Shown here in pieces: positions 29,601 to 63,455 of a stretch of DNA of 64,000 nucleotides. A program made the translations under genes and the position numbers. The notes beneath the pieces are model-generated. The model made no database searches, was not told where the DNA came from, and saw only the letters and a list, made by a program, of their open reading frames with translations. Source of the stretch: Amoebophrya sp. A120 (lineage: Eukaryota; Protista; Dinoflagellata); NCBI GenBank assembly GCA_905178155.1, contig CAJINV010000001.1:2780089-2844088 (forward strand). Direction: 5' to 3'. Positions within the stretch are counted from its first letter, which is position 1. Every line of letters starts with the position of its first letter.

Positions 29601-32600
29601 TGGGAAACAGCATGACAAATTGCCTGCAAACGAGACCACGACTGCGGCTCTTGGCCTTCTAGCGTGACAAGTCGATTTGGTACCTCAAATCCTGCATCAC
29701 AGATTTCCATTTCGATATGGGGAGGGGGGATTTTTCCGTTTGATAGAACGGCGTGTTTCCCCACCTGGACAGCACGTGTCTCGGGCCGAACGCCACCGAC
29801 GCCGCGTTTCTCCAGGCGTTGTACACGAAGCCGGCGAAGCCCAACATCATTTACAACCCCTCGAAGCAGAAAACGGACCTGTTCGGGGTCGCGCACTACG
29901 CCGGCGAGGTTTTGTATTCCGTCGACGGGTTTTTGGACAAGAATTATGAGAAACAGACGGACGAAGCGCTGGAAATTCTCCGGGAAAGCAAGAACGACCT
30001 GATAAAGAAGTTCATGGAGTTTTCCAGTTCTGGCACTGCTGGTGGAGCGGATAACTCCTCCTCTTCTGCTGCAACTTCTTCTGCCGGCGCAAGCAGATCC
30101 TCGACCGCGGGGCGCGGATCCGTCGGCATGCGCGGAAGCCGGTCGATGACGAGCGGGGCCCGGGGCAGCGCCAGTGCGACGGACAAAATCAAGGGCCCCC
30201 AGGGGACCGTGTCCAGCACGTTTCGCGAACAGCTGGACGCGCTGGTGGCGGACCTGAACAAAACGCATCCGCGTATCCTGCGTAAAAACGTACCCACACC
30301 ATAGTCAAGATGGGGAATCGGCTAGACAAATCCACAAGTTTTGGCTGTTTAGCATGACAAATTTGGACTCGTATTGTAGTGCTGTTTGAGCTAGCTCAGG
30401 AGCATCACAGATCTAGCATACCATGCTGATTGGAGCATGACAAATTGCAAAACACGACTATAAAATGCTTCTCATGGGGCTCCGCATGAGAAACATTTTC
30501 AGCATGCATGTCCCTATTGATGGGTTTTATCTTTCTCTTCCTCAGGAATGTATGGATATATGTAGAAAAGAGGTAAATTTAAATGAAGAGAAAGATAAAA
30601 AAGAAAAAAGACTGATTGGACTCAGACAAGCTTCTTTGTTTTTCAGTGCCACTTGTTACACCCGGAATACGCTCAAGTGCCAACAGGGCGAGAGCCCTGC
30701 AAGACCGGGCGTCAAAATAAGTCCAGACGGGAAAAACGCCAAAGATACCCGCGCCTTCTGCTTAACTGTGTGAAATATTGTGTCGGCCCGGTTCTGCTCA
30801 GACAGGCTGGATCCCGTAGATCAGATTTCACATGTTAAGTAACGCACACCGGCCTCCTAGCAAAAAACTAATGATGAATTTATATGAGCAAAGTGATGAA
30901 GATAGAGCGCAGCGGCTTACTGCGCAGCGTCGGTTCGTGCACGTGTGTCGCCCTTCGTTCGTTGCTTCCAGGAGCATGATCGCAAATTCGTACGCTCCTC
31001 CTGCTTTGAAAAAAAAAATCCGATCTTCCCGTCTGCCCCCATCTTCCCATGTAGAGTTAGGTCTCTGCCCTTTTATTGCTTCTCTCGTGTAGATGTGTTG
31101 TTGTTTTACCTGACTCGCCTTCTTAGCGCTAGCCCGCGTAGCCCGCGTCCTTGCAGGGGCAGCTGTTTTTTTTCCGCCTTGCCAGCGGGTTTTGTCGCGG
31201 GGAAGAAAGCAATCTGGGTTCAACGGTCCCCGCCCCCCCATCATCGTGGGTTCGACGGCCCCCGCCCCAAAGGAGACCACTTAGAAATATTTTTTTTGTA
31301 GAGTGCAAATTTTCACTGCGATCAACCGTTCACCATCGGCTGAAGCTGCACATGCATCCGGAGTAGTTTTGAAAAATTAACTTTATTGCCCGCGGCTTAC
31401 GGGTTTCGTCTAAAGGTTCTTCGTCAGGGTGCGCGGTTTCTATTATTGGCGTTCGGCTTGGTCGCACCCTATGGCTAGTATCTGAGATCAGAAGACCATT
31501 TATTTCGGGGGACAGTAGCGCGCGAAAAAAGTTCGTCGCGGGGGCACCCCGCATGGTTCGTTTTTATATGCTTTCCGCACCATGCATCGATGGCCGGGGG
31601 TTCGGTCGTGTTTCCCGCTGGGCTTTTCAAACGCGGGTTTGCAAAGCCCGTTTGCATAGGGCGTTCCCAGTATCCGCGTTTACATAGATCCCGGATATCG
31701 CCCCCTATGGGCAACTATCTCCCTAGACAGTGGCTCCTCCCTATCTTTACTACCGTCAGGTGCAGCGGCTTTCTGCACATAGCGCCTAGTCTCGACCCAT
31801 ATCGACCCCCCTTGCTATTCGTCCCACAGCATAGCAACGTCCGCCGCGGCTTACGGCTATAGACGTTAACTATATCGTGGGGATTTTCTATGCGTGTGTC
31901 CGGTCCGAGTTCGAAAAAGGGTTCAGGGGTGACCCCCCTGTATGCATGCGGATTTATGCTTCCGAAGGGTTTAGGGTTTTGATTTGTATGGACCAATGCG
32001 GCGCGCACATCGAGTTTCCTGGCAGTGTCGACCTGCTGTACACGGCGTAACCCCCGGCGGAAATAGACCGGAAAACGCATCTGAAACTGAAACTGAAACT
32101 ATGAGAAAGAGGGGCCTAATCAAAAAAAAAAAAAGATTTGCATTACAAGTATGGGGTGGGTACGTTTTTACTCAGGATACCGCGGTACATCCGCTGCATC
32201 AAGCCCAACGCGAACAAGGCTATGACCTGCTCAAACGTTACAATCTCAAATCGGTTACCATAGAATCTGGAATTTGTGTTGCATGATGGGCATGACAGAC
32301 TCGCACAGCGTTCCACCTTTTGCAATACAAATTTCGACAGAATGTAGTGGGCTTTCGAGACCCGGAACTTGTCATGCGCAACCCTATGAGAGTTGGCTGG
32401 ATCATGCTCATCATGCAAGACAAATCTCAGATTCTATTGTAACGCTTGAGATTGTAACGCCTGAGCGGGTTATAAAGGCGGCGCACGACTTTGACTCGAT
32501 CGACGTGTTGCGGCAGTTGCGGTGCGCGGGAATGCTGGAAGCAATACGGATTCGGCGCGCGGGGTACAGTGTGCGTCGACCGTTTCGGGAGTTTCTCATG

Positions 32601-40619: not shown

Positions 40620-40739
40620 GAAATAAAGCCTGCGGGTACTATTGCTGAAATAAAAAGCGTTCATCGAAAAAGTAGAAGTCGCTTTGCAAAAAAGTAAAGG
40701 AATTTGAGTCGGACAAGAGTTCGAACTTTTTGAAATTTC

Positions 40740-41375
40740 GTCAATCGTCCAAGACGAGAAGGAGAATCATGAAGAACACATTTTTAAACAAGAAACATGG
40801 CGAAGATCGGATGGAAAACAAAATTTAGGTTCGAACAAAACCACAGAATCTCAGAGCAACCATCATACATCACGACGAAAACTAATTTCTCAAAAATTTC
40901 ACTTACCATCCGATGGATAACATTCATCAGGCAATTCGAATCGACACATGATGACCATGACCGAAAAAATCTTCGAATGGATCCATCATAATGATTTCAT
41001 TTTCGGATGGAAATTTTTCTTCATCATGATAATTTCTTATATAATTGATGTCATCATCCATTTCTTTCTTTCTTGTCATGGATGAGATAATATTCTAAGA
41101 TGGATCAATTTCATTCTCATCATCAGAATAGGAAAAAAATGATGAAGAATATCATCTTATTGTATTTCGAGATGTCATTCTTTCATCCATACATCCATAT
41201 TTGTGTCTTTCATCTTGATTCAATTCTGGATCTCATATTATTCATTCATCCATAGGATATATTTCTGTCAAAAATTTCTGAATCTTTGAAAATTCAAAAT
41301 AGATGATATTCATCGAAGAAATTTTGTATTGATTTCGAGAATGCAAGATCTATAACTCCTATTGCTGAGCTGCGG
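40740..41375. other. AT-rich, ATC/GAT-rich left flank of the strand-switch complex
   Basis: Abrupt compositional change after the last + gene, with many catc/gatg/gatc words and no credible ORF. Confidence 0.6.
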
Positions 41376-41428
41376 AAGTTAAAATTTTGCGCCGGGAAAG
41401 AAAATCGCCCACGTCGATTTTTTTTTTG

Positions 41429-42353
41429 CATCAACGGGATCGGCCCCCAGTGTCATCAAAAGCAAAAAAATCATGATCCCCGAAAAAAAATTAAAAAAAA
41501 GCGGTGGCGCCCTGTTTTTCCTGCGCCCGGGGTAGTCTGGGGCGTTTTCTTCGTTCGTCCCTTGGCCCGAAGGATCCCGGAGGTCGGCGTCTTCCTTGGG
41601 AGTTCTCCGGTCGTTGGTGTTTGTTTTTTTATGCGACAAAAAATCTCAAAAATCCGGCGCCTGAAAAAACCAATGGGATTTTGCCTGTATGAGAAAAAAA
41701 GCCGCGAATTAATCTTGCGACAAAAAATTTCGGGCAGTTTTCTCTTGGTTCAAATTCCCATTGGTTTTTACAGGGCCGGTTTTTATGCGACAAAAAATCC
41801 GGCTTCGATATGCCATGGGGGTGTCGACCCCCTGTCGACCCCCTGTCGCAAAATTAATTTAATTTTGCCCGCTTCTCATGTTTTGCGTGTGATTTTGGGT
41901 GGTCTGGTGTTTTTGCGTCTCGGGGTCGGCGTCTTCAACACACCCAATTTGGATTTTTTGTCGCATCGGTGTCGCAAAATTAATTATTTTTTGTCGCAAA
42001 ATTAATTCCCGACTCTTTTTTCTTTATGGGGCTGGCAGGATATTTAGGCCGGGTCCACCCCGCAGCAGTGTGTGGACTCCAGGGCACACGCCCCCACAGG
42101 GCTCATTGGTGTGGAGTTCTAGCGGGGCGTGGCAGGCCATCCCATCTTTCTTGTGTTTGCGAATTCGTGTCCTGATTGCCTGACCACATTGAAAGGGGTG
42201 CTTGGGTGTGGGATTTCCCTTGTTGCTTTCGCTTCCAGCTTTCCCTGCCTTGTTGGATGGTTCAAATTTTTTTCAAAAAATTTTTTTTGGAAAAAGAGCA
42301 CGGGAGTTATGATTTTTTTTCCGCCGAGCCCACTGGGGCCCGATCCCGTTGAT
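41429..42353. repeat. Foldback (MITE-like) module with nested inverted repeats
   Basis: Outer IR atcaacgggatcgg(c/g)ccccagtg...aaaaaaatcat at 41429-41481 vs 42301-42353. Inner IR 41660-41681 vs 41752-41774. gcgacaaaaaat / tgtcgcaaaatt motifs occur in opposite orientations. Confidence 0.6.
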
Positions 42354-42431
42354 TTGCAATTTGCGAACTTTCAAAAGCTCGCGCGATTTGGGAAGTCGCC
42401 CAACGCCCAACAACGCCCAACAACGGCCAAC

Positions 42432-42707
42432 GAAATACTTTGCAATCCCCACGGCCGACGGCCAACGAAATACTTTGCAATCCCCGAAATATTTTGCAAC
42501 AATATTTTGCAATCCCCGAAATGTTTTGCAATCCCCGTAATATTTTGCAATCCCCGAAATATTTTGCAATCCCCGAAATATTTTGCAATCCCCGAAATAT
42601 TTTGCAATCCCCGAAATATTTTGCAATCCCCAAAATATTTTACAATCCCCAAAATATTTTATTGCAATGCCCAAAATATTTTGCAATCCCCAAAATATTT
42701 CGCAATC
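42432..42707 (+). repeat. 19-bp minisatellite (ttttgcaatccccgaaata), about 14 copies
   Basis: Directly visible head-to-tail repeats without spacers. Confidence 0.95.
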
Positions 42708-43534
42708 GGGAAGCACAAGGAAGCAGGGGAAAAGCGGAAAGCAGGGGGAAAGCGGGAAGCAGGGGAAAAGCGGGAAGCACGGGGAAAGTGGGAAGCGTGG
42801 GGGAAGCGGGAAGCATGCACGGGGAAGGCGTGCGGCAAGCACGGGGAAAGCGGGGCGCAAGGGGAAAACAAGACGCACGGGGAAAGCGGGAAACATCGGC
42901 CCGCGGGGAAAGCCGCGCCCTAGCACCAGGCGAACAGCTGCCCACCACCCTCCCCCGGCGCCCTCCCTCATCTGTTCACGAGAACACTGGCAGAGGGCGC
43001 CGCCGTCCGCCGCCTCTTGGGGGCAAGCACAGGAAAAGCGACCGACCCGAGAGCACGGGGAAAGCGGGCGGGAAGCACGGGGAAGGCGGGAAACACGAGG
43101 AAAGCGGGGGGCACGGGGAAAATGAGCACGGGGAAAGCGTGAAGCACGGGGAAAGCGGGAAACATCGGCCCACGGGGAAAGCCGCGCCCTAGCGCCAGGC
43201 GAACAGCTGCCCACCCAGCACCCTCCCCCGGCGCCCTCCCTCTGTTCACGAGAACACTGGCAGACGGCGCCGCCGTCCGCCGCCTCTTGGGGGCAAGCAC
43301 GGGAAAAGCGACCGACCCGAGAGCACGGGGAAAGCGGGCGGGAAGCACGGGGAAGGCGGGGAACACGAGGAAAGCAGGGAGCACGGGGAAAATGAGAAGC
43401 ACGGGGGAAGCGGGAAACGCGAGGAAAGCGGGGAGCATGGGGGAACCACGGGGAAAATGAAAAGCACGGGGAAAGCGGGGGGCACGGGGAAAACGGGAAA
43501 CACGGGGAAAGCGGGAAGCACGGGGAAAGCGGGA
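42708..43534 (+). repeat. G-rich satellite: ~18-bp gcacggggaaagcgggaa units plus a ~270-bp higher-order unit
   Basis: The block aaacatcggccc...tgttcacgagaacactggcag...ctcttgggggcaagcac recurs at ~42891 and ~43160. Confidence 0.9.
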
Positions 43535-43852
43535 NCGGAACGAGATCCGGAGGCAGAGCAACCGGGCGCCCTGTCACTCGCCCCAAGTAACTTGCAAGGC
43601 CAGGCAGGTTATGATGGGCCCTACTGATAAGAAATTTCGTCTATTTTTCTCCGATTTTTTTGAAATTTTTTTTTTTGAAAATTTTTTGGAATTTTTCGTT
43701 TAGATTTTCACTGAAAAGTTTTTTGCTATACAGGGTGTGAGGGCCATTTCTATACCGATTTCGCCTGCTCAGCTCGATTTTCAAGTCGAAAATCGACTAG
43801 CAGGCTGCTTCGACCTGTTTTAGGTCCTCTTTGTTCTATTCTGGGGCTGTTA

Positions 43853-43957
43853 GGGCGCTTGGCCCAACGGTTAAGGCCCCTAGGTCGTCGTCGACACCCG
43901 ATTTCGATCACTTTTATCATAGGTTCGAATCCCGATGGTATCGTCGATTCGAACCTA
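43853..43957 (+). ncRNA. tRNA-derived Pol III-type unit 1
   Basis: A-box TGGCCCAACGG (43860) plus TTAAGGC and B-box GGTTCGAATCC (43922). No anticodon arm. Confidence 0.5.
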
Positions 43958-44076
43958 GGTGATCGCTTTCGATTTCACATCATCGATCGCGAATTCCCAT
44001 GCTGTGGTCACCGCACAATGCGAAACAGCACGGAATCCGCCTCGATCGATGAGAGGATGCGAACTCGACGCGCGTG

Positions 44077-44192
44077 ATCGTCTTCTCTCGCTCGGCCTAT
44101 TGGCCGAGCGGTTAAGGCCCCCGGTTGTTTGTCCCAGTCCCTTTTCACCCTTCATCGACCTCGGGTTCGATTCCCGAAGACGGTGATTTTTT
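44077..44192 (+). ncRNA. tRNA-derived Pol III-type unit 2 (most complete)
   Basis: Acceptor-like stem ATCGTCT/AGACGGT, A-box TGGCCGAGCGG (44101), T-arm TCGGG-TTCGATT-CCCGA and a T6 terminator at 44187-44192. The anticodon arm is replaced by a stem with a pyrimidine-rich loop. Confidence 0.6.
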
Positions 44193-44327
44193 GCGCAGTG
44201 TAGTGCGGTCAAGAAAAGCACTAAGAAACCGCGGAGCCACAGCGTCGTGGTGCGACAGCTCTATGCTCCGTGGTCGGCGCAAAAAAAGCTATCGTGTTTG
44301 ATACGATGCTTCCGGCCTGTTCTTACT

Positions 44328-44420
44328 CGCTCGGCCATTTGGCCGAGCGGTAAAGGCACCTAGTTGTTACTTCGAGTCCCTTTTCACCCTTCATGGGATG
44401 ACGAGGTAGAAGTAACAATT
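44328..44420 (+). ncRNA. tRNA-derived unit 3 (A-box, no B-box)
   Basis: TGGCCGAGCGGTAAAGGC, and shares the 20-mer agtcccttttcacccttcat with unit 2. Confidence 0.4.
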
Positions 44421-45230
44421 GTCACCGCGATCACCATATCAAACACGACGGGGAGAACCGGAAAAGTAGGAGGGGAGAAGCGTGTTCTTTTTCTATTTGA
44501 TCACTGTGGTCGAATAGTAAAAGAAACAACACACGACCCGCGGCTGTTGCTGCTATGTGAATACTAGGCTTTTTTCCTCGGCCATACCGCCGAGCGGTGT
44601 CTGCCTTTCCTCCGTGATCGCAAACACTTTTTCCGATCTGCCAGGCGACACACAGATCGGCACTCGGCCGCACATTGACAGCAGCGGCTGTCGTAAAGGT
44701 TGGGACTCGTAACCTTGCGATGCGAAAATTTGTCATGCAAAAACTTCTGTTTTTGCATGACAAATATTAGATCGCAGGTTGCAGCGATCCCAACCCGATC
44801 GCGGAAGCCGCTGCATAGTGCGGCTGCGAGGGTTTCGGAGTTGCGGAAGGGTTCGTAAGTACTCCGCTTTACAGCCCTGTATAGCAGAAAAGTTTTCAAG
44901 GAAAAGACGAAGACCGGGCGGAAGAGCACATCAAGGTAAGAAAATAAGATGTCGGCGTGATGATTTTGAAGCCCGGAAGGTCAGCGGAGCACCGGCGGAG
45001 ATGATTATGAAAAAAACGTGACTAGTAGCTATGCGGTCTGTATTGTGTAGCTCTATCGTGCTACGTGTTTGTTTTTTTTCGATAGTTGCTACGTTTTTTT
45101 ACCACGATGCGGTTGTTTTTTGTTCTGAAAAAATGAGAGGTTTTTGTTTATTTCAGGAGCGGATGGCGGAGCGACGGTTGTTTTCAAGTTCTGAAATAGC
45201 AGTGCCTCTACCGGTGAAGACGAAGATCGT

Positions 45231-46289
45231 CAGGCGGACGACCCGGGGCGGGGCAACGCGCTAAACGACCGCTATATTCTGGCTAAATTGAAAAGCCGGA
45301 AGCGCACGGACCCAATGCCCGCGGGCGCGCTTCCGGGCGTGGAACCAAAAGAAGGCGCGCGCCCTTGCGATCGCGGGCTCCGGCCCATCCCTCCGTAGGC
45401 GGCGGAAGCGAACGGGCCGGGCCATCCGGGGCCCGCACTGCGGCCGCGGCACGGCTTCGGAGCGTCCCCGGCCCGCGCGCGACGGGCCCGACCCCGCGGG
45501 CCCGGTATTGCAAATGCCGCGTGGCCGGCCAGCCTCACGCGCAGGCCTTTTCGGGAAACGCCGGAGATATCTAGCGGGCCTCCGGCTAAATGCTCTGCTA
45601 AATTGCCTCCGGCCTCGCTAATTCGCGGCCGCTTTTCGGCTCGGGAGGCCAAAAAAAATCCATCTAAATATCCATCTAAGTATCCATCTAAGTGCTCTGC
45701 TAAATTGGGTCCCCCGGGAGGGGGCCGGAGGGCCCGAGGGGGCCCCGGGGCCAAAATCCTTCCCGTTTTCCCAGTGTCCAACATTTAGCCGGATACTTAG
45801 CCGGATACTTAGCCAGAATTTAGCTGGAATTTAGCGGAGCACTTAGCTGGATACTTAGCTGAATTTCTTTTGGGAATTAGCTCCAATTTAGCCGGATTTT
45901 AGCCGGATCCTGGCCGACGATTTCCGCCAGCATTTACCCTGTCGCCCAGGCGGCGGCAGGATGAATGCTGGAAGAAATATCGGCCAAGTGGGCCGGCCTC
46001 TTGGGAATTTAAAAACCCCAGCGCAAAAACCTTGCGAGTCTTTAAAACTCAAAACGGCCAAGGGCGGCACCCCGGGGCGAGGCGCTGCCGAAGCACTGGC
46101 GCCGCGGGCCGCGCGCGCAGCTGCGCCAAACACCCGCCGCCCGGCTGCTCCACGCATGGGGGGAAGGGTGCGCTGGCGCGCCCGAGCAGCCCGGCCCCAA
46201 GGAAGAAAAAACCTGCGCGGGCTGCGCAAAAATTTAGCCAGGTCATAGCCGGAATATAGCCGGAATCCCCGCCCCGGGCCGTCCGCCTG
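45231..46289. mobile_element. Non-autonomous hAT element (MITE), 1059 bp
   Basis: 23-bp TIR CAGGCGGACG(A/G)CCCGGGGCGGGG (22/23 identity), 8-bp TSD AAGATCGT/AAGATCGG, and internal inverted arrays of ctaa / ttag motifs. Confidence 0.9.
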
Positions 46290-46545
46290 AAGATCGGGGA
46301 CCAATCGAAGAAACAACTATCATGATATTTGTTTTGCAGAGCCAGGACCTAAATCTAGTGTCTACATGAAACTAATATAACTAAAAACATACATAATGAA
46401 GTAACTAAAACACACAATCCCACTAGTATAACTACAGGGCCCGTTTTTTTTTGGAATGTAGATAGTGCGCCATAAAGTCATACTATTCTTTCCACACCTA
46501 CACCGCGGATCATCATAGTAGACAAAAAGCAAACCCACTCCTTCT

Positions 46546-48646
46546 GTGGTCATCTTCTATTGTTTCGGCAGCGACGAGAAGATGAACAAAGAGGAGAAGA
46601 AGGCCGAGGCGGAACAAGAAAAGAACGAGGAATGCAAAAAATTCTTCACAGCAAAAGCCTACTTGGCACCACGCAAGTTGTGGAAGCTGTGCTACCTGTT
46701 ATGCGAGACGGCTTTCGAGTACGCACGCGAGTACTTCGCGAACCCGAAACTCACCTTGGTCCACTACCGGGTGGAGATCGACGGAACCACGACGCAGAGC
46801 ATGCTGTTTGAAAACAGTGTGAGGGGGAGGATTAAGATCTTCGCGCATGTGATGGCGTCGATCGTCGCGATTACCTTCTGCTGCGGAAGCCTGATGAACA
46901 TCGGGTCGGTGTTTGTGCCAACGCACACCGTGCTATATCCTTCGTCGCAGAACTTCGGGGCGAAAGTAAAGGGACAAAAGAGCTGCTTTCGCGGTTGGAG
47001 TGAAAGAAGCATGGGAGGTGGCGGACCAGGTGCTGACGTTTCACAACCCGGAAATTTTTTTCGGGCGTTTCGGGCAGCAGTGCGTGCAAATTTGGAGTCC
47101 AGTGACGGACTCGGGTGGAAGCACAATAAATACGCTCTTCTTCATCGGCGGAATTTTTATGATGGGCAAGCACCTGGCCAATGTGGTGCTGTGGACACAG
47201 AGGTGTAAGGTGCACCAAGCAGCACTAGTAACCCGCCAAATAGCCGAGATGTATCTCGGGATGCTCAATCTGGATCCGAAAGGATGGCAGAAGAGACTGC
47301 GGCTGCAAGTACTGTTTTTTTTGATTTTTGTAATGCATTTCAGTACTATGATCGCATGCTTATTTGCATGACAAATGTGCACTTCAAATCAAAAGCCAAC
47401 TACTTCTAATCTACAGGTGCACAGTGTGAAACTGCTGTCCGAAAAAATACACAACTCGCTCGACGGCGTTGCTCGGTGGATTGCGCCATGGGACAAGAGC
47501 GAACCGATGGCGAAAGACCAAGCCTTTAACAACTTCTTGGACAGACGCGAGATAAACTACAAGAAGAAAAAGTTCCTCCGCGGATGCTCGGTGAAGCAGC
47601 GGATGTTGATAGTGCCGAAGGACGGAAGAACCGCTGCGCTGCGTGGATTACATAGTTTGTATCGCGGCTGGCGGGCGCCAGTCTGGACCCGCTGGCTCAC
47701 AGTGCGGCAAGCCCTCGGACAAATGCTGTTGTGCTGCAGTATGTTTTTGGCGAGGATCTTCTACGGACTAGGAGAGCGGGTCAGTTTTGGGGCGGAAAAG
47801 ATACTGGAGCACGGGTTCAAGCTGGACATGTCGAAGGAAAGCGGTATAGCATAAATCTGTAATGCAAATTCTTAGAAATGCAAACGCTTTTACATGTGTA
47901 AAGACACTTCGTGGCAGCATGATTTGTAATGCAATCTGTAAGCCAGTATGTGATTAAAAAAGTGCACCACCATGCAAAATAAATCCAATTATCTCCAGGC
48001 ACACAGTTCATTTTTCTCATCGTCTCGCGGTTTCTGCACATGATTCTGAAGCCGATTGAGCATTATAATGCTGCAATGCTCAAAAACGACCTTCACGAAC
48101 GCACCCGCACTAGTTTGAGGAGCCGCTTCTTGGAGGATCTGCAGGAGGTTTATTTATATCTGTCCGACCTGGATGCGGTTTACGACGACATCGCCTATCT
48201 GATGTGCGGAATCGGAATCGGCGAGGTGATATTCGACGACGCACAAAAAGACTTAGTATTTCTTTATACTTTTTGCAAAATTTGTCATGCATAATTCGCG
48301 TCGGAACAATGAACGTTACATCATGTGCATATATAAACTCACTCAGATCGAGCTTGCACGGATTTCCGCCCAGCAGATGTTGTTCATCAGCCGAGTTATT
48401 TTGTGGCACCGGGATGGCAAACGAGACCTGCGCGAAGAGTGGATCCAAAAGGCAAAAGCAAACCTCGAAGCGGAAATGCAGAACTTGAAAGAAATGGACT
48501 TTGCGGTGTACGTCCAAGAAGACCCTGGCAGCATCTCCCTGCACAGCGTTCAGCGGTGGATGATGAATCAACCGGAGGAGATTCGCAAGCAGCAGATGCA
48601 GAAACTGACTGAGTACTTGCAGGTCGTTAATCGCAGTAGCAAAAAC
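46546..48646 (+). CDS. hAT-superfamily DDE transposase, intron-containing, truncated by an assembly gap and possibly inactive
   Basis: Ordered motifs EIDGTT (D1), VTDSGG (D2), RCKVHQAAL (CxxH) and WTRWLT (RW). GT-AG introns 47309-47416, 47844-47998 and 48256-48346 keep the frame. A frame change at ~46967-47000 is either a 34-nt atypical intron or a frameshift. The catalytic E was not seen before the gap. Confidence 0.75.
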
Positions 48647-48746
48647 NNNNNNNNNNNNNNNNNNNNNNNNNNNNNNNNNNNNNNNNNNNNNNNNNNNNNN
48701 NNNNNNNNNNNNNNNNNNNNNNNNNNNNNNNNNNNNNNNNNNNNNN
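48647..48746. other. Assembly gap (100 N)
   Basis: Run of N. The true distance and contiguity are unknown. Confidence 1.
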
Positions 48747-48748
48747 TT

Positions 48749-49762
48749 CAGGAAGACAGGCCCGGGCGACCTAACGTTTCTAATTGGAAGATAAAAGCGG
48801 GCTAATTTGATGGCCTTTCGAACCCAAGGCCAAAACCAAAGGAGAAGGCGAAAACAGGACGGGGAAGGAAGGTGGCGGCCGAAACATTGGCAGCTGGCTG
48901 AATGAAGACCCAGAGAGAAGAAAAACGGCCCCCGCCGCGGACATTTCGAAAGCCAAAAAAGGAAACCCAAAAGGCAGGCCGGCGGACCCCGAATGCGGTT
49001 GCTTGAGATCCAAGTCCCCACACCGGGTTTCTAATTTGTCGTCTAATTTACCTCCGGCGAACCCCCTCCGGAGTCTGCTAAACTGCTACCCGAATCCAGA
49101 GCCCCCCCATTCTAACCTGCCTGCTAACCTGCATCTAATTTTTTTTGGCCCCTTCTAATTTGTCGTCTAATCGTGTTCTAACTTGCATCCCCCTGTGCAC
49201 ACCAGGGTCGGAAATTCCAATGGGATTTCGTTGATGAAAAAAACATCAACGAAATCCCATTGGAATTCCCTACCCGTACGCAGTTAGATGCCAGTTAGAA
49301 CAGGTTAGCCGACCAATTAGATGCGGTTAGCTGACGGGTTAGAAGACCCGTTTCGGATGGGCGAAGAACTTGCTTTGCAAGTTAGAAATGCAAATTAGAA
49401 ATTTGGCCTTGCCGTTTAGTGCCCACCTTCCTGGGCAATTAGATCACCCAAACCCAACCACATCCGGGTGATCTAATTCGGGAAGCGACATGAGCAAGTC
49501 CCCCGGGAGCTCGAACAACACAACACTCACCCGAAAAGGAAACACCCACAACAAACCAAAGACAATCCCCCCGCCCGCCTTTATACCCAAAAACACGCCG
49601 AATTTTTATATTTTAAAACCCCCAAAGAAGCGGAGCGGCAGCCGGCTCCTGCCAAGCATGCCACCCGGCGCGCAACACATGGCAGAGACAACGGCGCCGA
49701 TACAAATTAGCCATTTTTTAGCAGCCAATTAGGGCGGGAATTCGCCCGGACCTGTCTGCCTG
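48749..49762. mobile_element. Second hAT-type MITE (1014 bp), diverged relative of 45231-46289
   Basis: 21-bp TIR CAGG(A/C)AGACAGG(C/T)CCGGGCGA (19/21 identity) and the same ctaa/ttag foldback layout. The TSD cannot be tested because the left flank is in the gap. Confidence 0.75.
49213..49267. repeat. Perfect 24-bp hairpin with an A7 loop
   Basis: aattccaatgggatttcgttgatg-aaaaaaa-catcaacgaaatcccattggaatt. Confidence 0.95.
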
Positions 49763-50183
49763 AAAACGGGGAAAGCGGGAAGCATCGGCCCACGGGAAAA
49801 GCCGCGCCCCCGCACCAGGCGAACAACTACCCAACACCCCCCCCCGGCGCCCTCCCTCTGCTCACGAGAACACTGGCAGAAGGCGCCGCCGTCCGCCGCC
49901 TCTTGGGGGCAAGCACGTGAAAAGCGAGAGCACGGGGAAAGCGGGAAGCACGGGGAAGGCGCATGCAAAACACGAGGATGGAAAGCGGGCGGGAGGCACG
50001 GGGCGGGAAACACGGGGAAAGCGGGAAGCACGGGGGAGCCGGGAAGCAGCAGCCCGCCCCACGGGGAAAGCCGCGCCCCAAAACCATGCGAGCAACTGCC
50101 CGCCCAACACCCTCCCCCGGCGCCCTCCCCCTGTTCACGAGGAGACGGGCAGACAGAGGGCGCCACCGTCCGCCGCCTCTTGG
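49763..50183 (+). repeat. Second block of the G-rich satellite, same orientation as 42708-43534
   Basis: Same cacggggaaagcggg units and the ...cacgagaacactggcag...ccgccgcctcttgg block. Confidence 0.9.
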
Positions 50184-50456
50184 AAGCTGCGCGCGAGGGG
50201 GGGCGGGGGCGGCGCAGATTGCATGCAAGCTAACGCGTGGGGCGCCGCTGCTGTCCGGGGGTGCGGGGGGAGGGTGGTGGGCCCCTGCGCCTACAAAGCT
50301 AGCAATGCCCCGCTCCGGCGCCCGTCCTCTATGTATCCACGCGCGCGGCAGGGGCCCCAACAGGCCTCTGCTCTGCAAGGCTGCGCGCGGGAAAAGAAGG
50401 GGTGGGGGCGCCAAGGCGTGCAGGGAGGAGCGGCCGGCGCGGGGCGCGCCGGCAGG

Positions 50457-50513
50457 CTTAGGGTTTAGGGTGATTTCTAGGGCCATGCGGGGCTTAGGGC
50501 TTAGGGTTTAGGG
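50457..50513 (+). repeat. Interstitial telomere-like repeats (T/C)TTAGGG
   Basis: cttagggtttaggg...cttagggcttagggtttaggg, five near-perfect units plus one degenerate unit. Confidence 0.6.
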
Positions 50514-50879
50514 CCATGCGGGGCGCACCGGCGCGGCCGCGCATGGCGCGGGCTCTTCTCCTGCTTTCTTCCCCCGTCCAGTGGCGCCCGCCCGCTGCAG
50601 CGCTTGGCGTTCTTGGGCCTAAAGCTTTCCGCCTAGGGCGCGCGCCCAATGCGGGCGAGGTTTCACGCTCGCACAACGACGGGGGCGGGCCACGGGCTCC
50701 ATGGCGCTCCACATTGGTTCTTTCAACAAGAAACGGCGCAGATGCTTGGTCCCACCCTGCATCGGAAATCTTTCCCCTTGCCCATCCTCTGGCGTTTTTC
50801 TTTCCCCCCTGTCCACTCGTTCGCCCTCCCACTGCGCGACATAAGCTGCGGCCTTGTAATTTCTTTCTCCCGAGATATC

Positions 50880-51560
50880 TCCATGATCCGAATCCCAATG
50901 ATGAGATTCATCGGAATCTTAATCCTTCCTGTTATTCTATCATTCTGATGGAATCAAAAAAATGAATCCAAATTTAGATGGATTATTTTTATTTTCATGG
51001 AGAAAATAAATATATCATTCTTTTTTCTTGTATATCTGGATATATCATTGATTTTTCGAGAGCCGAAGATATCCATCATTCAATTCTCACATCAATTCAT
51101 CTCTATCACCATCAATTTTGAAAAATTTTGACTATTTTTAGAGTCATTTTCTATTGCAATAATTTCTAATTCTTCAAACGACAACCAACAATAAATTCAT
51201 GAATTTGCAACGATTATTTCCATAAAAATTCAGGAAAAAAATCAAATTCTTTCCTTCAAAATAATTGCTTCAATATTCACTCTCAAAGATCACAGATCAG
51301 ATCTATATCACCCCAGAATGATACACATCCAAAATCCAGAAAACAAAATTTCGATCTCGATGAATTTTTGGATATTATCATTTGCAATTCATCGAGAAAC
51401 AGAATGAGTCAACAAACAGAAAATTAGGATCTGACTTTGAATGCATCGGGAATATCCATTCGGGTGTGTTGATTCGTTGCATGTTAGAGGAACACATATT
51501 GGTTTGATTACTTTTCGTTTTTCATTTGAAGATTTCTGTTTCTTTCCTGTCTCCTATGTT
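50880..51560. other. AT-rich, ATC/GAT-rich right flank of the strand-switch complex
   Basis: Composition mirrors 40740-41375, with no ORF. Confidence 0.6.
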
Positions 51561-51814
51561 GTTGTCCTCATCGTCTAGTCAATGTCTTGTTTGCTCGCCG
51601 AAGTGTCCGTCGACTTCTTGCAATTGATATATAAAGCGACCAGTATAAGTCAAAGCCTTCGTACAAACGTGGATCTCGTTAAACTTCCAAACTACAGCTC
51701 GAGCGGCTTTCACATTGCAAGAGATCCTTTCGATAGAAATCATCGCCACCAGATTCGGTCTTGGACATCACAGTTGTTCTGGCAAGGCTTTCTCGTGTGA
51801 TGTCGCAAGAACCT

Positions 51815-54457: not shown

Positions 54458-57400
54458 CTAGTCCCACCGTTCCTCGATAAACCTATGTCGCGCTATGTTT
54501 TTGTCCTCATCAATAGTGTCTGTTTCTATGCCTATGAGTCTCAGGGTTTCGCGGAGACCGCCCTGATGCATGACGAGGTCCATGATTTCTCGCTTGTCGG
54601 TCAAAGCCAGCACGTCGGGCGTTCTCTCGGTCACCAACTCTCGCAGCCGCACTCGTGTTTCGTCAATCAGCTTGGGGGAAAAAAGCTGCCGCAGGTCGGA
54701 GAGGCTCAGGCTAGAGTCGTCGCTTATCCGGTCCAGGCCGTGCTGCCTGTGTATCATTTGAAAAGCGAAGATTGTACGGGCATGCGCGGCCTGTTAAGGA
54801 CATTCATAGTAGTCGTGCAACGTGAAAGAGAAAATGGAGCGGCAAAAAATCTTACTTGCCACTTACCTGACGATTGTTTTCAAGACTTTGCGCATCTGTT
54901 TCAAGCTTTTGTTCGTGCCATCCCCAGCACTATCCTCGGTTTGCATCGGAACCACAGTGGACACAATTTCTCGGGGGGACACAACGAAGGCGTGGTTTCC
55001 GAATTGAACTGTCACTTCCAACCCGGAATGGGAATCGTCCACACAGGGCCTGCGGGTGTCAGTGCGAATCGCGGCTGCGGCAGTTGCTTTCTGTTCGAGC
55101 ACATTTTGTTCACTAGCAGAATCTCGTCCTTTATTGAAGATCGAGCCGGGTCCGCGAGTCACTTCCTGCACCGTCCCCTGCTTCCCCGCAGCAATACATT
55201 TGACCGGTTTTTTGCTGCTCGGTTGGTTGCAAACAGACGTCGTCAGGGTGACGGGCTCGCCGATGGCAAACATGAATGTAGAGCCCGCAACTGCGGTGAA
55301 GAATCTGTAGTCGTAGTGCGAAATTGCATCAGAACGAATAGGCAAGTCGTCAAACTGCTTGTCAGTAGTTGCAAGCGACAGCGCAAATCAGTGAAAAAAA
55401 AATGGCATAATACGTCCACTCCAAGGTGTGCAGTGCCCACGGACTCAAGTGCACAATTCGCTGCAACGGGCGTAGCATCTGCTGCTCGTAGGCGAAAACC
55501 ACCTCAATCGCTTCCTGCCACACGTGCCAGAGATCGGACGCGGTGAGCCGCAGCGGCCGGGAGAGTAACCGCATTGACAACGCGTCCACCAGATGTTGCG
55601 GGGCGCAGGGGACGTGATTCGTCGTCGCGCTAGAGGTCGTGACTGGTTCATCTCGTGAGTCATTCAGTATCCTGCTGCACCGGTTGTCTCCGAGCAAACG
55701 TGCCACAATTCTGATGTCATTTGCCATCTGGGGCAGCAAAGTCGCAATCGAATCGCTATGTCGCTGCGCCTCCTTCCTCCAATCAGACAAGTCGACAAAG
55801 AGGGTAGCCCGGCTCCGCGGCAGGTCGGTTTTGCTACTGCGGAATTCAAAAAGAATGTCGAGGTACTCCACTAGCCGGGACGAAATTTGCGTCAGGGAGC
55901 TCAGATCTTCCGGTCGGTCAATTTCTATTGTCGTGTCGACAGAGATTTTTGAGTTGAAATTGCCCTTTTCTCTGTTATTTTCTGTTCCGAAAGGAGCTCG
56001 ACCAATAGTACCGCGTCTGCTCATCATCTTCACCATTTTTGCTTTGTAAGCCTTTGCCACCAAGCGCAACGCCATCTGGAACTCGGAAATGTAGTCCGTA
56101 ATCTGCTGCTGCACTTCGACCGCGATGTCGGGGAAGGCGAATTGGAACGGGACCGGGGTCCACACGTGCTGGAAGTGGGATTTTTGGGATAACGAGATTC
56201 CCTCTTGGTACAAGACCTGGCGCAACAGCTCTAAATTTCCCTGGTCGAAGTAACCCTGTAGAACGCGCTGCAAGCGGTTTTTCGTCGGGCCGAAGCTCAG
56301 CGCTGGCGGGGCGTCGTCGTGCTTCGGGTCCCCGCGGCCTTGGTGGAGAAGCTTCGCAAGAACAGGCCCTGGTGCTTGTTTCTGGTGTGGGTCTGCAGGC
56401 GAAGTAGAAGCACTACCACTAGCAGTTTGTTGGTCTGCATGCGCAAAATCATGTTGTATTTCCTGTTGCTCTTGTCCAATCTCTTCGGAGTAGTGCTGTC
56501 TCAGCTTGAAAAACTCGTGGACCACCTGCTCGGGCCGGGTGCTTTCGGCGACGATGCGCGAGTAGGACAATGCAGAATCGAAAGACGCGAGGAAATCCAG
56601 GTTGAGTCCCTTCGGAGCCTTTTCCAGCAGCCGCTGCATGGCAGGGGAGGAGGCGCCGTCAAGGATGGCTTTCTGCCTCTTCACCGGGTCCTGCGACAGG
56701 TTTTCCTGCGACAACCGGTCCTGTGCGGCTGGCCCGCTTGTTCCACCGGTGGCATTTTTCCCTTGCTTCTTCCTTTGTTCTTTCAAAAACTTGCGCTCTT
56801 CGCGCAAAATACGGATGAAGAATTTTGTCCACGTACCGTACACGGGAAACTTCACTGCGCGCTCGACGACGTAAACGAGGATGTCGACAATCAGGTTGGG
56901 ATCTAGGCGAAGGAGATCCAGTTTTACCGTTGAAGACTGCACTCGCGCGGCGGCTTCTTGCGTCCCCTGTGGCTTGTTTGATTGATGATCCCGCGAAAGA
57001 GAAGGATGTAGTTCAGCACTTTGAATAATTTCTCGCTTGATCGCATTTGGGTCGTCTATTTCATCCTCAAACTGGGAAGTTCCGGCGGCTGCAAACGGAT
57101 CAACATAATTTTTCGGCTTTTGCGCCGTCGGATCGTGACCAACCGTGTATGCCGCGGCTCCCATTGCCGCGTACCGCCTGCGGGTCCTGGCGGCTTTCGC
57201 CAGCTGGTCGGTGTAGGTTTGATCGTTTGAACCCCCAGCAGCAGCATTTTTCCTACTTCCTTGGTCCACGGACGAGGGAATTCTCCAGGTGTCTTTCTGC
57301 ATGAGCAAGCCGCCCCAGCTTCGGCTTACTTCCACGGGCACCGTCGCGAAATCTGTGCTCACAGTCTCGTGCACTCTGTGCTGAATGGACGTTTTGTCTT

Positions 57401-60400
57401 GCAAGGAGTTCGGATCGTAGTCGCTCATGCGCGGCCACAAACCCCCCGCCTCCGCGATATAGTCGGGAATGACGATTTTTTTCTTGCTTCTCTTGAAAGT
57501 CGCGACCTTCGGCGCTCGGTGCCGGTTCAGATCAAGGGTTTGGGTCGGAGGCGCACCACTGGAGGAAGAAGAATCGATTGACGATCGTGAAGATGCAGCG
57601 TTCTCAGCAGGTTGTCCTCGCGACGAGGCTGAAGGTTTCGGCGATGTTGTACTAGTTGTGCTCGTGGTTGGTAAAATTTTTGATTCCGTTTTCAATTTCG
57701 GCAGCTCGTCATCTGTCATCCAGGGAGTTGTTGTTTGATCCAATTTTACTACCACGCCCGGACAACAGCCAGAAAACACCACGCGGATCAGCGTCTGCAA
57801 GACCCGGGGGTCCACCCACCAGCGGAGAAGGGCAAGAATGCCCGAGGCGACCTGTCCCTGCACGGCGTGGTGGCGCAAGATCGATGCCCACTGCGCCTGC
57901 AGTTTCTTATCGTTGTCATGCGGCATCAGTTCCATCGTGATTGCGCGGACCAACCACTCGTAGACGAAGGAATACTGCTCATTGGATCCGGCGGTGGTGA
58001 ACTGCAGGTCTTTCCGATTTCCCTCCAGCCGCCGGAGCGCGGCCTCCACGCGGCGCAGTTCGTTGCGCGCCTTGTCGTCGCGCGATAGCCGTAGTGCCTC
58101 CAGCTGCTCGGTGACGGGGTCCGGACCCGCTGGGCAGTGCTTTTCCGCCTCAGCGTCGTCAAGCGGAAAGCTGCCCGGGTAATCCGGGTCGGAAGGGGGA
58201 ATGTCGGGGTCAAGTTCGAAAGGATTTGGTTTTTCATCTGCCGGTTCTGGTGTGCGGTTCAGTGTTTCTGCCACCTTCCTTTTTATTTTTGCGTGGTCCT
58301 GTTTTGCGTGGTCTTGCTCAACGGGATCTTCATTCTGCCGTTTTTCTTTATTCCAGTTTTCGTAGTGTCTTGCGTCTGCAGCTGACATTGCGACAGTCAC
58401 TGACCCGAACTGCATAGTCACCATGTCCTGCTTTGACAAAATTTTCTCTGCGTCAGCTTTACGTGCGGCCGCAGAACTATAAGGCTGTTTTTGTGCTTGT
58501 CGTGCGGCGGTGCTGTCGGAAGGAGCAGCAGCTCCAGCTCCTGCGTTCTTCATGGGTTCTTGCTTCTGTCTACCGCTTCCCTTTCCCCGTTTCTTGCTCT
58601 TCGTTCTAAGCTCTCTTTCTCGCGCTATTCTCTTTATGATCGACCCCGGATTTTCGACCTCGCGATCCAGGTCGACGCCGAAAAGCAAGGCCCGAAAGCG
58701 CGGCGCGCCAAGCAGGCATGCAAGACGATTGCGCGAGTTCAGGTTGATCAGATTTCGTTTGGCCGGCAGCAGGTTGGCGGATGCTGGAATCGATCTCTGT
58801 CCCCTCGGGTCGGAGGTACTAGTACGTGCAGTTCCAGCAGTTGTGCCACTGACTGTTACAGTTCCATCTGCGTGTCGTGCCTGGCCCTTTTTCAACAACG
58901 CAATCCGCTTGAGAAACGACTGCAACAGCCTCCCCTGAATGGGCTTCGTGTGCGATTCCGGCGCATTTCCGACCGGGTGGTCGAAGAGCAAGCGGCGAAG
59001 CGCCTGCTCATCCAGGGAGAGCGCTTTGCTCGCATGCGTCTTGATCCACGTGTCGCTGCGCTCGGGCAGGCGTGGTTTATTCATCTCTGCCGACCCCGAG
59101 AGTTGTGCCAGATGTGGTTCATTCCCTTCGCCCCGGAGGGGAGCCACACAAATATCGGCGCCTAGCGCCAGGTGACTTGTCGGGAGTAGAAAAGACCAGC
59201 CGGCGTCAGTCGGAAGGAGCCACGGTTGCTCCGTCGAAGACACGTAAGACGAACCATGATCTCCCGCACTGCAGTAGTTCTGACGCTCAAGAGAATCTAC
59301 TACGGGACGATCTGCAAGAACACCAGATGAAGCCTGTGCGCTGCTTGATCCCCCGACTACGTTTTCGCCTTTTATTCTACTCTCCGGGTCCGGACGAAGT
59401 GCGGATGCGTGTAGCGAGGTGTGAGTCTCCGTTGTTTCTACTGGCGACGGTACTATTGGCCGCTGATTTATTCGACCTACAGACGAACCACGAGCGAGGA
59501 ACCCCGCACATTCCTGCACACTACTGGCCACTTCCAGCTGCGTACTGAGTAACGGCGGATCGTGCCTTTTCTTTGCTTCCACCTCGGCGCGACAGCTTTT
59601 CCGATCGGCGTTCACCGTCGCTTTCACATCGTAATAGGCGGTTGGGTAGTTTTCTGGAAATACATGCTCGGATGAAAAAAGACCACTTCTATCCGGTTTT
59701 TCCACCCCGACGGGGAAGAACCGCCACCAGTTGAGCAGCTGCATGTTGTCCGTGCCGAAGGAGTTTCTCAGCTCCTTCTTTGTCAATTTCCGGAACGCTT
59801 CGTCACTGATTTGAATTTTCGGCACGCGCAGCAGCGAAAACTGGTGTTCATTTTTGTCCTCACCTTGATTTTGATCTTCATCTCCCGGGATCGTAACCGC
59901 GGCGATCATCGCTTCCTGATCAGGATTCAAAAAGGAAAACGTCCAGGGGACATCGGCAATCCGTTCGTGATCCTTTTCCGCCAACGCGTCCCCGAATTTC
60001 TGCCAGCTAACCGCTTCGAGGTTCACTTCGACCAGGATGGAAAAAACGCTCACTTCACTGAGCCCCAAGAGCGGCGAGGACGCCTGGCGCATCAAATCGG
60101 AGCAAGAGAAGGGGCCGGCAAAGTTCTCGGCGAGTTCCATGATTCGGCGATGGGCAAAATCCGCCCAGGTTTCGGCACCAGAAGGAGGCGTGGCAGATGT
60201 TTTTGTGTGCTTCTTGTTTTCGTCGATCTTCTCTGTTTTCATTCTGGTGAACCGATTTTCCGCTACCTCTTCCGACCACTCAGAGCCCTCTTGCACCAGC
60301 GGCACTTCTGTGCGCCCGATGCTTGCCTGTAAGTCGTACAGTGGCGTGCCAACTCGGTCGGGAATCATTGCGACCACGTAGTCGTAGTGCGAGGCGTTTT

Positions 60401-63400: not shown

Positions 63401-63455
63401 GCAGCATTTCGCAAGCTTTGTGCGACAATGCCGGCGAGAAAGTCATAAGGACCAT
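54458..63455 (-). CDS. Very large hypothetical protein (8.1-kb ORF plus probable 3' exons)
   Basis: 2697-aa uninterrupted ORF 63455-55362. Same-strand ORFs 55345-54863 and 54757-54458 are likely further exons. No domain recognised. Confidence 0.7.

Follow-up and report, generated by a model that had tools for sequence, protein, structure and literature searches.

What is the stretch of about 1.2 kb at positions 43705-44905, in which tRNA-like pieces recur in tandem between inverted repeats in the genome of Amoebophrya sp. A120, a syndinian dinoflagellate and marine parasite? The window, by which we mean the whole stretch of 64,000 nucleotides that was analysed, contains on the + strand a myosin exon of 292 aa with 100% identity to an A120 protein and also dynamin-like and DOT1 exons, and on the - strand TauE. 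The cassette, as we call the 1.2 kb, lies in a repeat-rich stretch (~40700-51700) that has the DOT1 gene on one side and, on the other, a point where the gene strands switch convergently; because + strand genes extend to at least 47330 and - strand genes begin at 51815, the switch is at most ~7 kb away, and a + strand gene sits between it and the cassette. No open reading frame of more than 138 codons overlaps the cassette, and no coding exons flanking it were found. Repeat arrays (19-bp, 18-bp and 270-bp) occupy 42423-43534 and 49758-50183, with ~80% identity between the two places, and a single-exon reading frame at 55362-63455 on the - strand (2697 aa) has neither a Pfam match nor an exact counterpart in the protein collection. 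The answer we favor, and to which we give roughly even chances, is that 43724-44886 (1.16 kb) is a non-autonomous DNA transposon carrying four tandem, folded-back tRNA-derived units.

The units are arranged as follows.

43841-43965, + strand: unit 1, with a partly complementary 5' strand, D arm/A box at 43860-43877, B box at 43922-43932, and a decayed inverted copy (43940-43965) that pairs over the B box
44077-44192, + strand: unit 2, the most complete, with an acceptor-like stem (44077-83/44178-84), a hairpin covering the D arm (44089-97/44102-10), A box at 44101-18, T arm at 44161-77, and a run of six T at 44187-92
44314-44420, + strand: unit 3, with a hairpin over the entire D arm, A box at 44340-57, no intact B box, a 12-bp stem (44362-73/44409-20) and an enclosing helix (44293-303/44437-47)
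44577-44640, + strand: unit 4, degenerate, with a 6-bp hairpin and a partial D arm

An earlier note on this DNA, made from the sequence alone, had described three tandem D-arm/A-box units about 240 bp apart, and this is what we found: they start at 43860, 44101 and 44340 (spacings 241 and 239), and the A-box pattern has 3 matches in the window against 0.37 expected, a count reached in 2 of 100 shuffles. The fourth, degenerate A-box unit suspected near 44577 is also present, 247 from unit 3; the four align in register, and their profile finds no fifth in the window. Pairwise identity among them (57, 39, 37, 34, 34, and 30 of 67 positions) forms a gradient of decay. Two units had been credited with a T arm and B box, which is correct for the B boxes (exact at 43922 and 44164) but only partly so for the T arms, the T stem of unit 1 pairing incompletely; unit 1 also has an antisense B box at 43945-43955. 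Units 3 and 4 retain the D arm only, without a B box, and the B-box pattern at one mismatch is not enriched in the window (4 found versus 4.9 expected).

The D and T arms are of tRNA ancestry, as had been proposed. The 18-nt D arm of unit 2 recurs at 152 public loci, of which 52 are prokaryotic and 100 viral. At 128 of them it belongs to a tRNA called by ARAGORN, beginning at tRNA position 8 in 110 cases and at position 9 in 18; by isotype the matching tRNAs are 72 Ser, 31 Met, 17 Leu and 8 others. Accessible text on tRNA-Ser and tRNA-Leu gives the same six letters at positions 8-13 as in the units' D arm (PMC8869645). The distance from D arm to T loop is 65 and 64 nt in two units, compared with 54-59 nt in most Ser tRNA genes, and when the spacing of one Ser(CGA) gene (L034) is counted back from the T loop, CGA stands at the anticodon position in units 1 and 3. 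Profile scores for Ser, Leu and Met support the T arm of units 1 and 2 only and do not fix the isotype; judging from these sequence features, the parent was likely a class II tRNA gene (Ser/Leu), with Ser as the isotype that we infer.

The units are, however, not tRNA genes, and none of them forms a cloverleaf. The claim that they lack an anticodon arm proved right: with loops of 7-69 nt scanned, a 5-bp anticodon stem is impossible in all three of the better-preserved units apart from two exceptions, one of which takes up the T-stem strand of unit 2 while the other is a long-range pairing in unit 1. When a D stem is imposed on unit 2, its folding energy goes from -42.1 up to -25.3 kcal/mol (a cost of ~17), whereas the top half of acceptor and T arm (7+5 bp) lies 2.8 kcal/mol above its best fold. 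As anticipated in the earlier note, which expected a pseudogene call or no match, ARAGORN finds 0 genes and Rfam gives 0 matches at gathering score, units 2 and 3 reaching 16.5 and 17.9 bits with the tRNA model (cut-off 29). Nor are they ordinary intron-containing tRNAs, since relaxed ARAGORN settings with introns return mismatched structures only. Split, permuted or multi-intron tRNA genes whose parts are joined after transcription could be envisioned from the fact that unit 2 holds all tRNA arms but the 5' anticodon strand, and from the CGA of units 1 and 3, whose placement depends on the spacing of one Ser gene; but with no anticodon stem, the cost of the forced D stem and the mismatched ARAGORN structures, we consider this extremely unlikely.

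With class II tRNA genes and SINE heads the units have in common a T arm, a B box and a D arm that equals positions 8-25 in many tRNAs for Ser, Met and Leu. They differ in that they have neither an anticodon stem nor a SINE tail, are longer by 7-10 nt and have the D arm covered by an inverted copy of itself. Such an inverted copy upstream of the D arm was found in 0 of the 152 public loci. Dada transposons came into question since tRNA positions 8-13 are their insertion site, in the alveolate Perkinsus as well, and the D-arm hairpins of the cassette are centred just before tRNA position 8; as described in the available portions of the reports (PMC3706591, PMC8869645), Dada elements are 4.7-11 kb long, encode a transposase, lack terminal inverted repeats (TIRs) and split a tRNA gene with a 6-7-bp target site duplication (TSD). 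The cassette has no transposase reading frame, possesses a TIR and shows no 6-7-bp TSD inside a small RNA gene, and we thus rejected this identity.

A further feature is a 20-mer common to two units.

44136-44155, + strand: 20-mer in unit 2, containing a run of four T
44375-44394, + strand: the same 20-mer in unit 3

It occurs in the window only at these two places, in agreement with the earlier note, whose caveat about an internal TTTT also applies. The note's picture of a free, guide-like loop fared less well. In unit 2 its mean unpaired probability is 0.70 when the unit is folded alone and 0.42-0.52 when more of the surroundings is included. In unit 3 the value is 0.50, since 10 bases of the 20-mer are paired to sequence further downstream in a hairpin resembling a variable arm. 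Units 2 and 3 are identical at 59 of 69 positions (10 mismatches, ~85%), and when 10 mismatches are scattered at random over 69 nt, 19.8% of the trials leave an identity run of at least 20, so that an unchanged 20-mer is unremarkable for a duplication of this degree of identity (P about 0.2). Units 1 and 4 lack it. The one point that speaks for it is that in unit 3 it is unaltered relative to unit 2 though its pairing partner there is imperfect. The proposed target search yielded no complement in the window other than its own opposite strand, the best other duplex being -22.9 versus -36.0 kcal/mol. With identity at chance level, half of the sequence paired in unit 3 and no target within the window, a guide-like role finds no support; by position the 20-mer probably runs from the last part of the old tRNA's anticodon loop through the 3' strand of the anticodon stem into the variable arm, to go by one example. 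Its complement may match large-subunit rRNA in part. Two matches among metagenome contigs had dissimilar flanks and were taken as chance, and viral contigs gave 0 matches to the 20-mer, 0 to the hairpin-plus-D-arm pattern and 0 to the TIR.

The promoter boxes of each unit had been reported to sit beside their own complements as self-masking promoter hairpins. The local hairpins over the boxes are real, but the name misleads: both kinds of box work as duplex DNA, so the hairpins cannot silence the promoter and could mask only an RNA. The D-arm hairpin is present in 4 of 4 units, with 88.9% of cells paired and one double-sided change, values matched by chance in 37 and 114 of 500 shuffles; its retention hints at selection, with covariation that is not significant in this alignment of four rows. 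The upstream strands do not discriminate their own unit's D arm from the others (16.5 versus 16 and 16; 28.5 versus 27.5 and 22). The 3' strand of unit 3 may be an inverted duplication or, since it stands at the position of the T arm, a remodelled T arm.

Because unit 2 alone carries the full set of Pol III signals, the main rival explanation is that the units, and chiefly unit 2, are functional Pol III small-RNA genes similar to RUF6, VA or vault RNAs, either borne by a mobile element or domesticated. Viral VA, EBER and vault RNAs are Pol III RNAs with internal A and B boxes. The candidate RNA would run for ~110 nt from near 44077 to the six T at 44187, or for ~65 nt if the internal four T terminate, and would combine a tRNA-like top half, suited to RNase P/Z-type processing, with a remodelled core. 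In unit 2 both the A box and the B box are exact, the terminal stem measures 7 bp (pair probability 0.75-0.88) and is followed after three bases by T6, and the 5-bp T stem has no mismatch; the 5' hairpin is kept in four paralogues, and a T-run recurs 41-52 nt beyond each A box. An alveolate precedent exists in Plasmodium RUF6, for which the accessible text gives 135 nt and canonical A and B boxes (PMC9670795). The likeness to RUF6, VA/EBER and vault RNAs extends to internal A and B boxes, a length of 100-135 nt, a terminal stem and a T-run (unit 2 only), but here no Rfam sequence matches, the units are tandem inside a TIR element, and they are known from sequence alone. Moreover, the B box is absent in units 3 and 4 and the terminal T-run in unit 1, the 20-mer is neither specially conserved nor consistently exposed and has no target in the window, covariation among the four units is not significant, and the T arm of unit 2 is formed in only 12-17% of the predicted ensemble. 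We regard Pol III genes as a possible but unlikely explanation.

Evidence for a transposon comes from the ends of the cassette, where the 31-bp inverted repeat said to bracket the region was recovered at 43705-35/44875-905 with 27 of 31 positions complementary.

43714-43722, + strand: left direct repeat of 9 bp, candidate TSD (11 bp with one mismatch as 43713-43723)
43724-43735, + strand: left TIR, perfect over 12 bp and imperfect further inward, the inner part of the 31-bp inverted repeat
44875-44886, - strand: right TIR, the sole partner of the left arm in the window
44888-44896, + strand: right direct repeat, identical to the left copy (11 bp as 44887-44897)

The direct repeat abuts the 12-bp TIR directly and is centred on a palindrome. 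A palindrome within the arm of an inverted repeat always reads as a direct repeat, and the candidate TSD thus rests on one diagnostic base: the central base (G/G) agrees when the two copies are read as direct repeats but not when they are read as inverted ones, which fits a duplication and is what a staggered cut at a palindromic target would be expected to give. Taken as sequence, TIR and flanking direct repeat fit a transposon insertion with a candidate TSD, and TSDs of 4-10 bp are typical for hAT, Kolobok, P and MuDR elements according to the portion of text available (PMC3706591). The cassette resembles non-autonomous TIR transposons (MITEs, and MULE- or hAT-type elements with captured cargo) in its short TIR, candidate 9-11-bp TSD and lack of coding sequence, and likewise in the nest of similar elements around it. 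It differs in that its 1.16 kb hold a cargo of tandem self-folded tRNA units and in that no cognate transposase has been reported for A120 in the sections at hand.

A decayed tandem array of SINE heads or tRNA pseudogenes, made palindromic by local template switching and with the inverted repeat as just another foldback, would account for the A-to-B spacing, which is workable in two units (65 and 64 nt), and for hairpins that occur throughout, also outside the tRNA parts; tRNA-derived repeats are abundant by RepeatMasker in another dinoflagellate, as far as the accessible part of that report goes (PMC3229502). Yet no poly-A or simple-repeat tail and no per-unit TSD are visible, the direct repeat adjoins the TIR without a gap, and elements of the same kind lie nearby, and we see little probability in such an array.

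The surroundings also bear on the transposon reading. The window contains five inverted-repeat pairs of the cassette type, while 30 block shuffles together yielded 2, or 0.07 per shuffle. Three more inverted-repeat-bounded segments of ~1 kb lie within 5 kb of the cassette (41430-42353, 45225-46295 and 48747-49764). The segment at 45225-46295 (1.06 kb when taken as 45231-46289) folds with z -11.3, has complementary CAGG-type ends and an 8-bp flanking repeat (7/8), and is like a non-autonomous hAT element; its end is similar to that of 48747-49764. The segment at 41430-42353 (0.9 kb when taken as 41431-42352) is flanked by a 6-bp exact direct repeat, and no other sequence examined favors the + strand so clearly in its G-U pairs (22/217 versus 5/168). 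The earlier interpretation stands as to tRNA origin, finds no support as to the guide loop, and did not consider the marks of a transposon-like insertion among elements of the same kind, in a genome whose mobile introns have equally strong folds.

The cassette is predicted to fold nearly throughout, with z of -15 on the + strand (25 shuffles) and -21 on the - strand (15 shuffles), and beyond the units the predicted fold contains the following.

43763-43805: hairpin of 18 pairs
43981-44051: spacer hairpin of 22 pairs
44188-44285: multibranch spacer with a 9-bp closing stem
44486-44524: spacer hairpin of 15 pairs
44681-44814: long hairpin with an 11-nt motif on each arm (z -9.0)

Folding of this strength is not special here, as introners fold about as strongly: fold z ranges from -1 to -16 in nine introns of introner type and one element near the cassette, all within the window. 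G-U pairs in the cassette (12/267 versus 11/295) show no strand bias, which fits inverted duplication at the DNA level and does not exclude selection on RNA, since the test is uninformative for known introns too. The 11-nt stem motif has 13 exact copies in the window, and 34 with one mismatch, on both strands (e.g., 26781, 26829, 27072, 29252, 29287, 29610, 30352, 30435, 47366, and 48280); it lies inside introners of apparently different families, often as paired arms, and most inspected copies are in introner-type introns. This distribution makes it a candidate for a shared recognition stem, and we found it not described for A120 in the accessible text of PMC7789003.

That text (Farhat et al. 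2021, PMC7789003), in the portions available, describes A120 introners with 8-20-nt inverted and 3-5-nt direct repeats, tens of thousands of spliced non-canonical introns, which account for >60% of all introns, and no detected U1 snRNA. The cassette is like these introners in its ends joined by an inverted repeat, its strong foldback and the 11-nt internal stem motif; it departs from them in lacking TAT-N7-AAA, the introner start motif present at the myosin-gene introners and absent from the cassette ends, in a flanking repeat of 9-11 bp rather than 3-5 nt, in its location outside a coding gene, and in a length ~5x the mean of 240 nt given there for A120 non-canonical introns. A myosin gene intron at 30273-32180 (1.9 kb), closed by a 31-bp introner-type inverted repeat, is itself far above the mean length and may hold nested insertions.

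Alternatively, the whole 1.2 kb could be one structured Pol II segment, such as a large non-canonical intron, a 5' leader or a lncRNA, which would be excised or matured in whatever way the remaining non-canonical introns of Amoebophrya are. The cassette ends pair over ~29 bp plus an 8-bp outer helix, the surrounding + strand gene block has signals that resemble splice acceptors (43692, 43719) and a splice donor (44933), and both the 1.9-kb intron of the window's myosin gene and the reported share of non-canonical introns (>60%; PMC7789003, as accessible) offer precedents. A canonical-looking GT...AG intron at 44933-45157, immediately right of the cassette, suggests that a + strand transcript passes there. 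Nonetheless, no flanking coding exons were found, and there is no introner start motif and no G-U strand bias, and we judge a Pol II segment improbable; it would overlap with the TIR element if the element were also spliced.

The proximity of the strand switch raises the additional idea that the units are DNA-level TFIIIC boundary sites, for which tRNA clusters at trypanosomatid strand-switch regions and yeast ETC sites are precedents. A convergent switch within ~7 kb and two exact B boxes would suit such a role, but a + strand gene intervenes before the switch, the hairpins and the TIR with its direct repeat are left unexplained, and a literature search on TFIIIC in dinoflagellates returned nothing on the subject as judged by titles; we hold this to be very unlikely.

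Other identities were set aside as well. Rfam matches to miRNA, CRISPR and snoRNA models are far under gathering scores and reflect generic hairpins, and a telomerase RNA was rejected because inspection by eye showed no template for the A120 telomere repeats. The cassette may bear some resemblance to spliced-leader RNA and U1. A single SL gene is reported for A120 in the available part of PMC7789003. The + strand gene at 46579-47330 has as the sole homologue found the Amoebophrya AT5.2 protein P0123 (37% and 52% identity in two parts), and because the homology switches frame near 46995, the gene is frameshifted, or the assembly is in error, or a tiny intron is present. Its motif order D..D..CxxH recalls hAT/MuDR-type transposases, an identification that gained no support from Pfam, PDB, profile or fold comparisons (models with pLDDT 38.6 and 39.4).

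If the cassette is a TIR element with tRNA cargo, its history might be as follows. A tRNA gene would have been captured and its anticodon stem lost; the fragment would then have been duplicated at a period of ~240 bp, and local inverted copies would have been gained, covering the D arm by pairing and in unit 1 the T arm too. Insertion would have followed at an AT-rich palindrome, with a DDE transposase encoded elsewhere as the probable agent. Its foldback would be of the same compact-hairpin style as that of A120 introners, and is predicted to keep enzymes that process tRNAs from recognizing the tRNA-like arms of a read-through transcript. Recruitment of Pol III by unit 2 may persist, but the sequence can be explained without any functional product. 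We infer the mobility, the order of events, the isotype and the role of the hairpins, whereas the repeats, the folding potential, the lack of a cloverleaf and the descent of the D and T arms from tRNA are evident from the sequence.

Several observations argue against a TIR element. There is one copy of the cassette in 64 kb, and the accessible text of Farhat et al. (PMC7789003) mentions putative transposases in A25 only and none in A120. The D-arm hairpin is kept in four units and unit 2 retains every Pol III signal; the ends are unlike the A120 introner consensus, and the 20-mer is unchanged in unit 3. As for sequencing runs, two contain all sampled cassette words and are possibly the window's own source. 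Compared with 43560-45260, two 151-nt pieces from one run had 1 and 0 differences, too close for covariation, and three further runs, searched with no positive control, gave 0, 0, and 1 partial reads. A more speculative extension, which we think decidedly improbable, is that the element rebuilt a Ser tRNA gene into Pol III RNAs that act in trans on introner mobility or non-canonical splicing. In this extension such RNAs would keep the tRNA top half for processing, with the D arm locked and the anticodon stem dropped, and would cooperate with the introner-motif hairpin.

We found no description of such units in Amoebophrya in the full-text literature, a scope that mostly leaves subscription papers aside; the accessible parts of PMC12005148, PMC11282704 and PMC3229502 cover only tRNA counts, introners and RepeatMasker tRNA-derived repeats. 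If unit 2 is silent cargo, the cassette would be an oddity in the evolution of repeats. Were it transcribed, it would represent a type of Pol III RNA that our literature search did not find for syndinians. A TIR element that combines a long duplication and a tandem tRNA cargo with the introner stem motif would be, in addition, a concrete lead on what still moves in the A120 genome.
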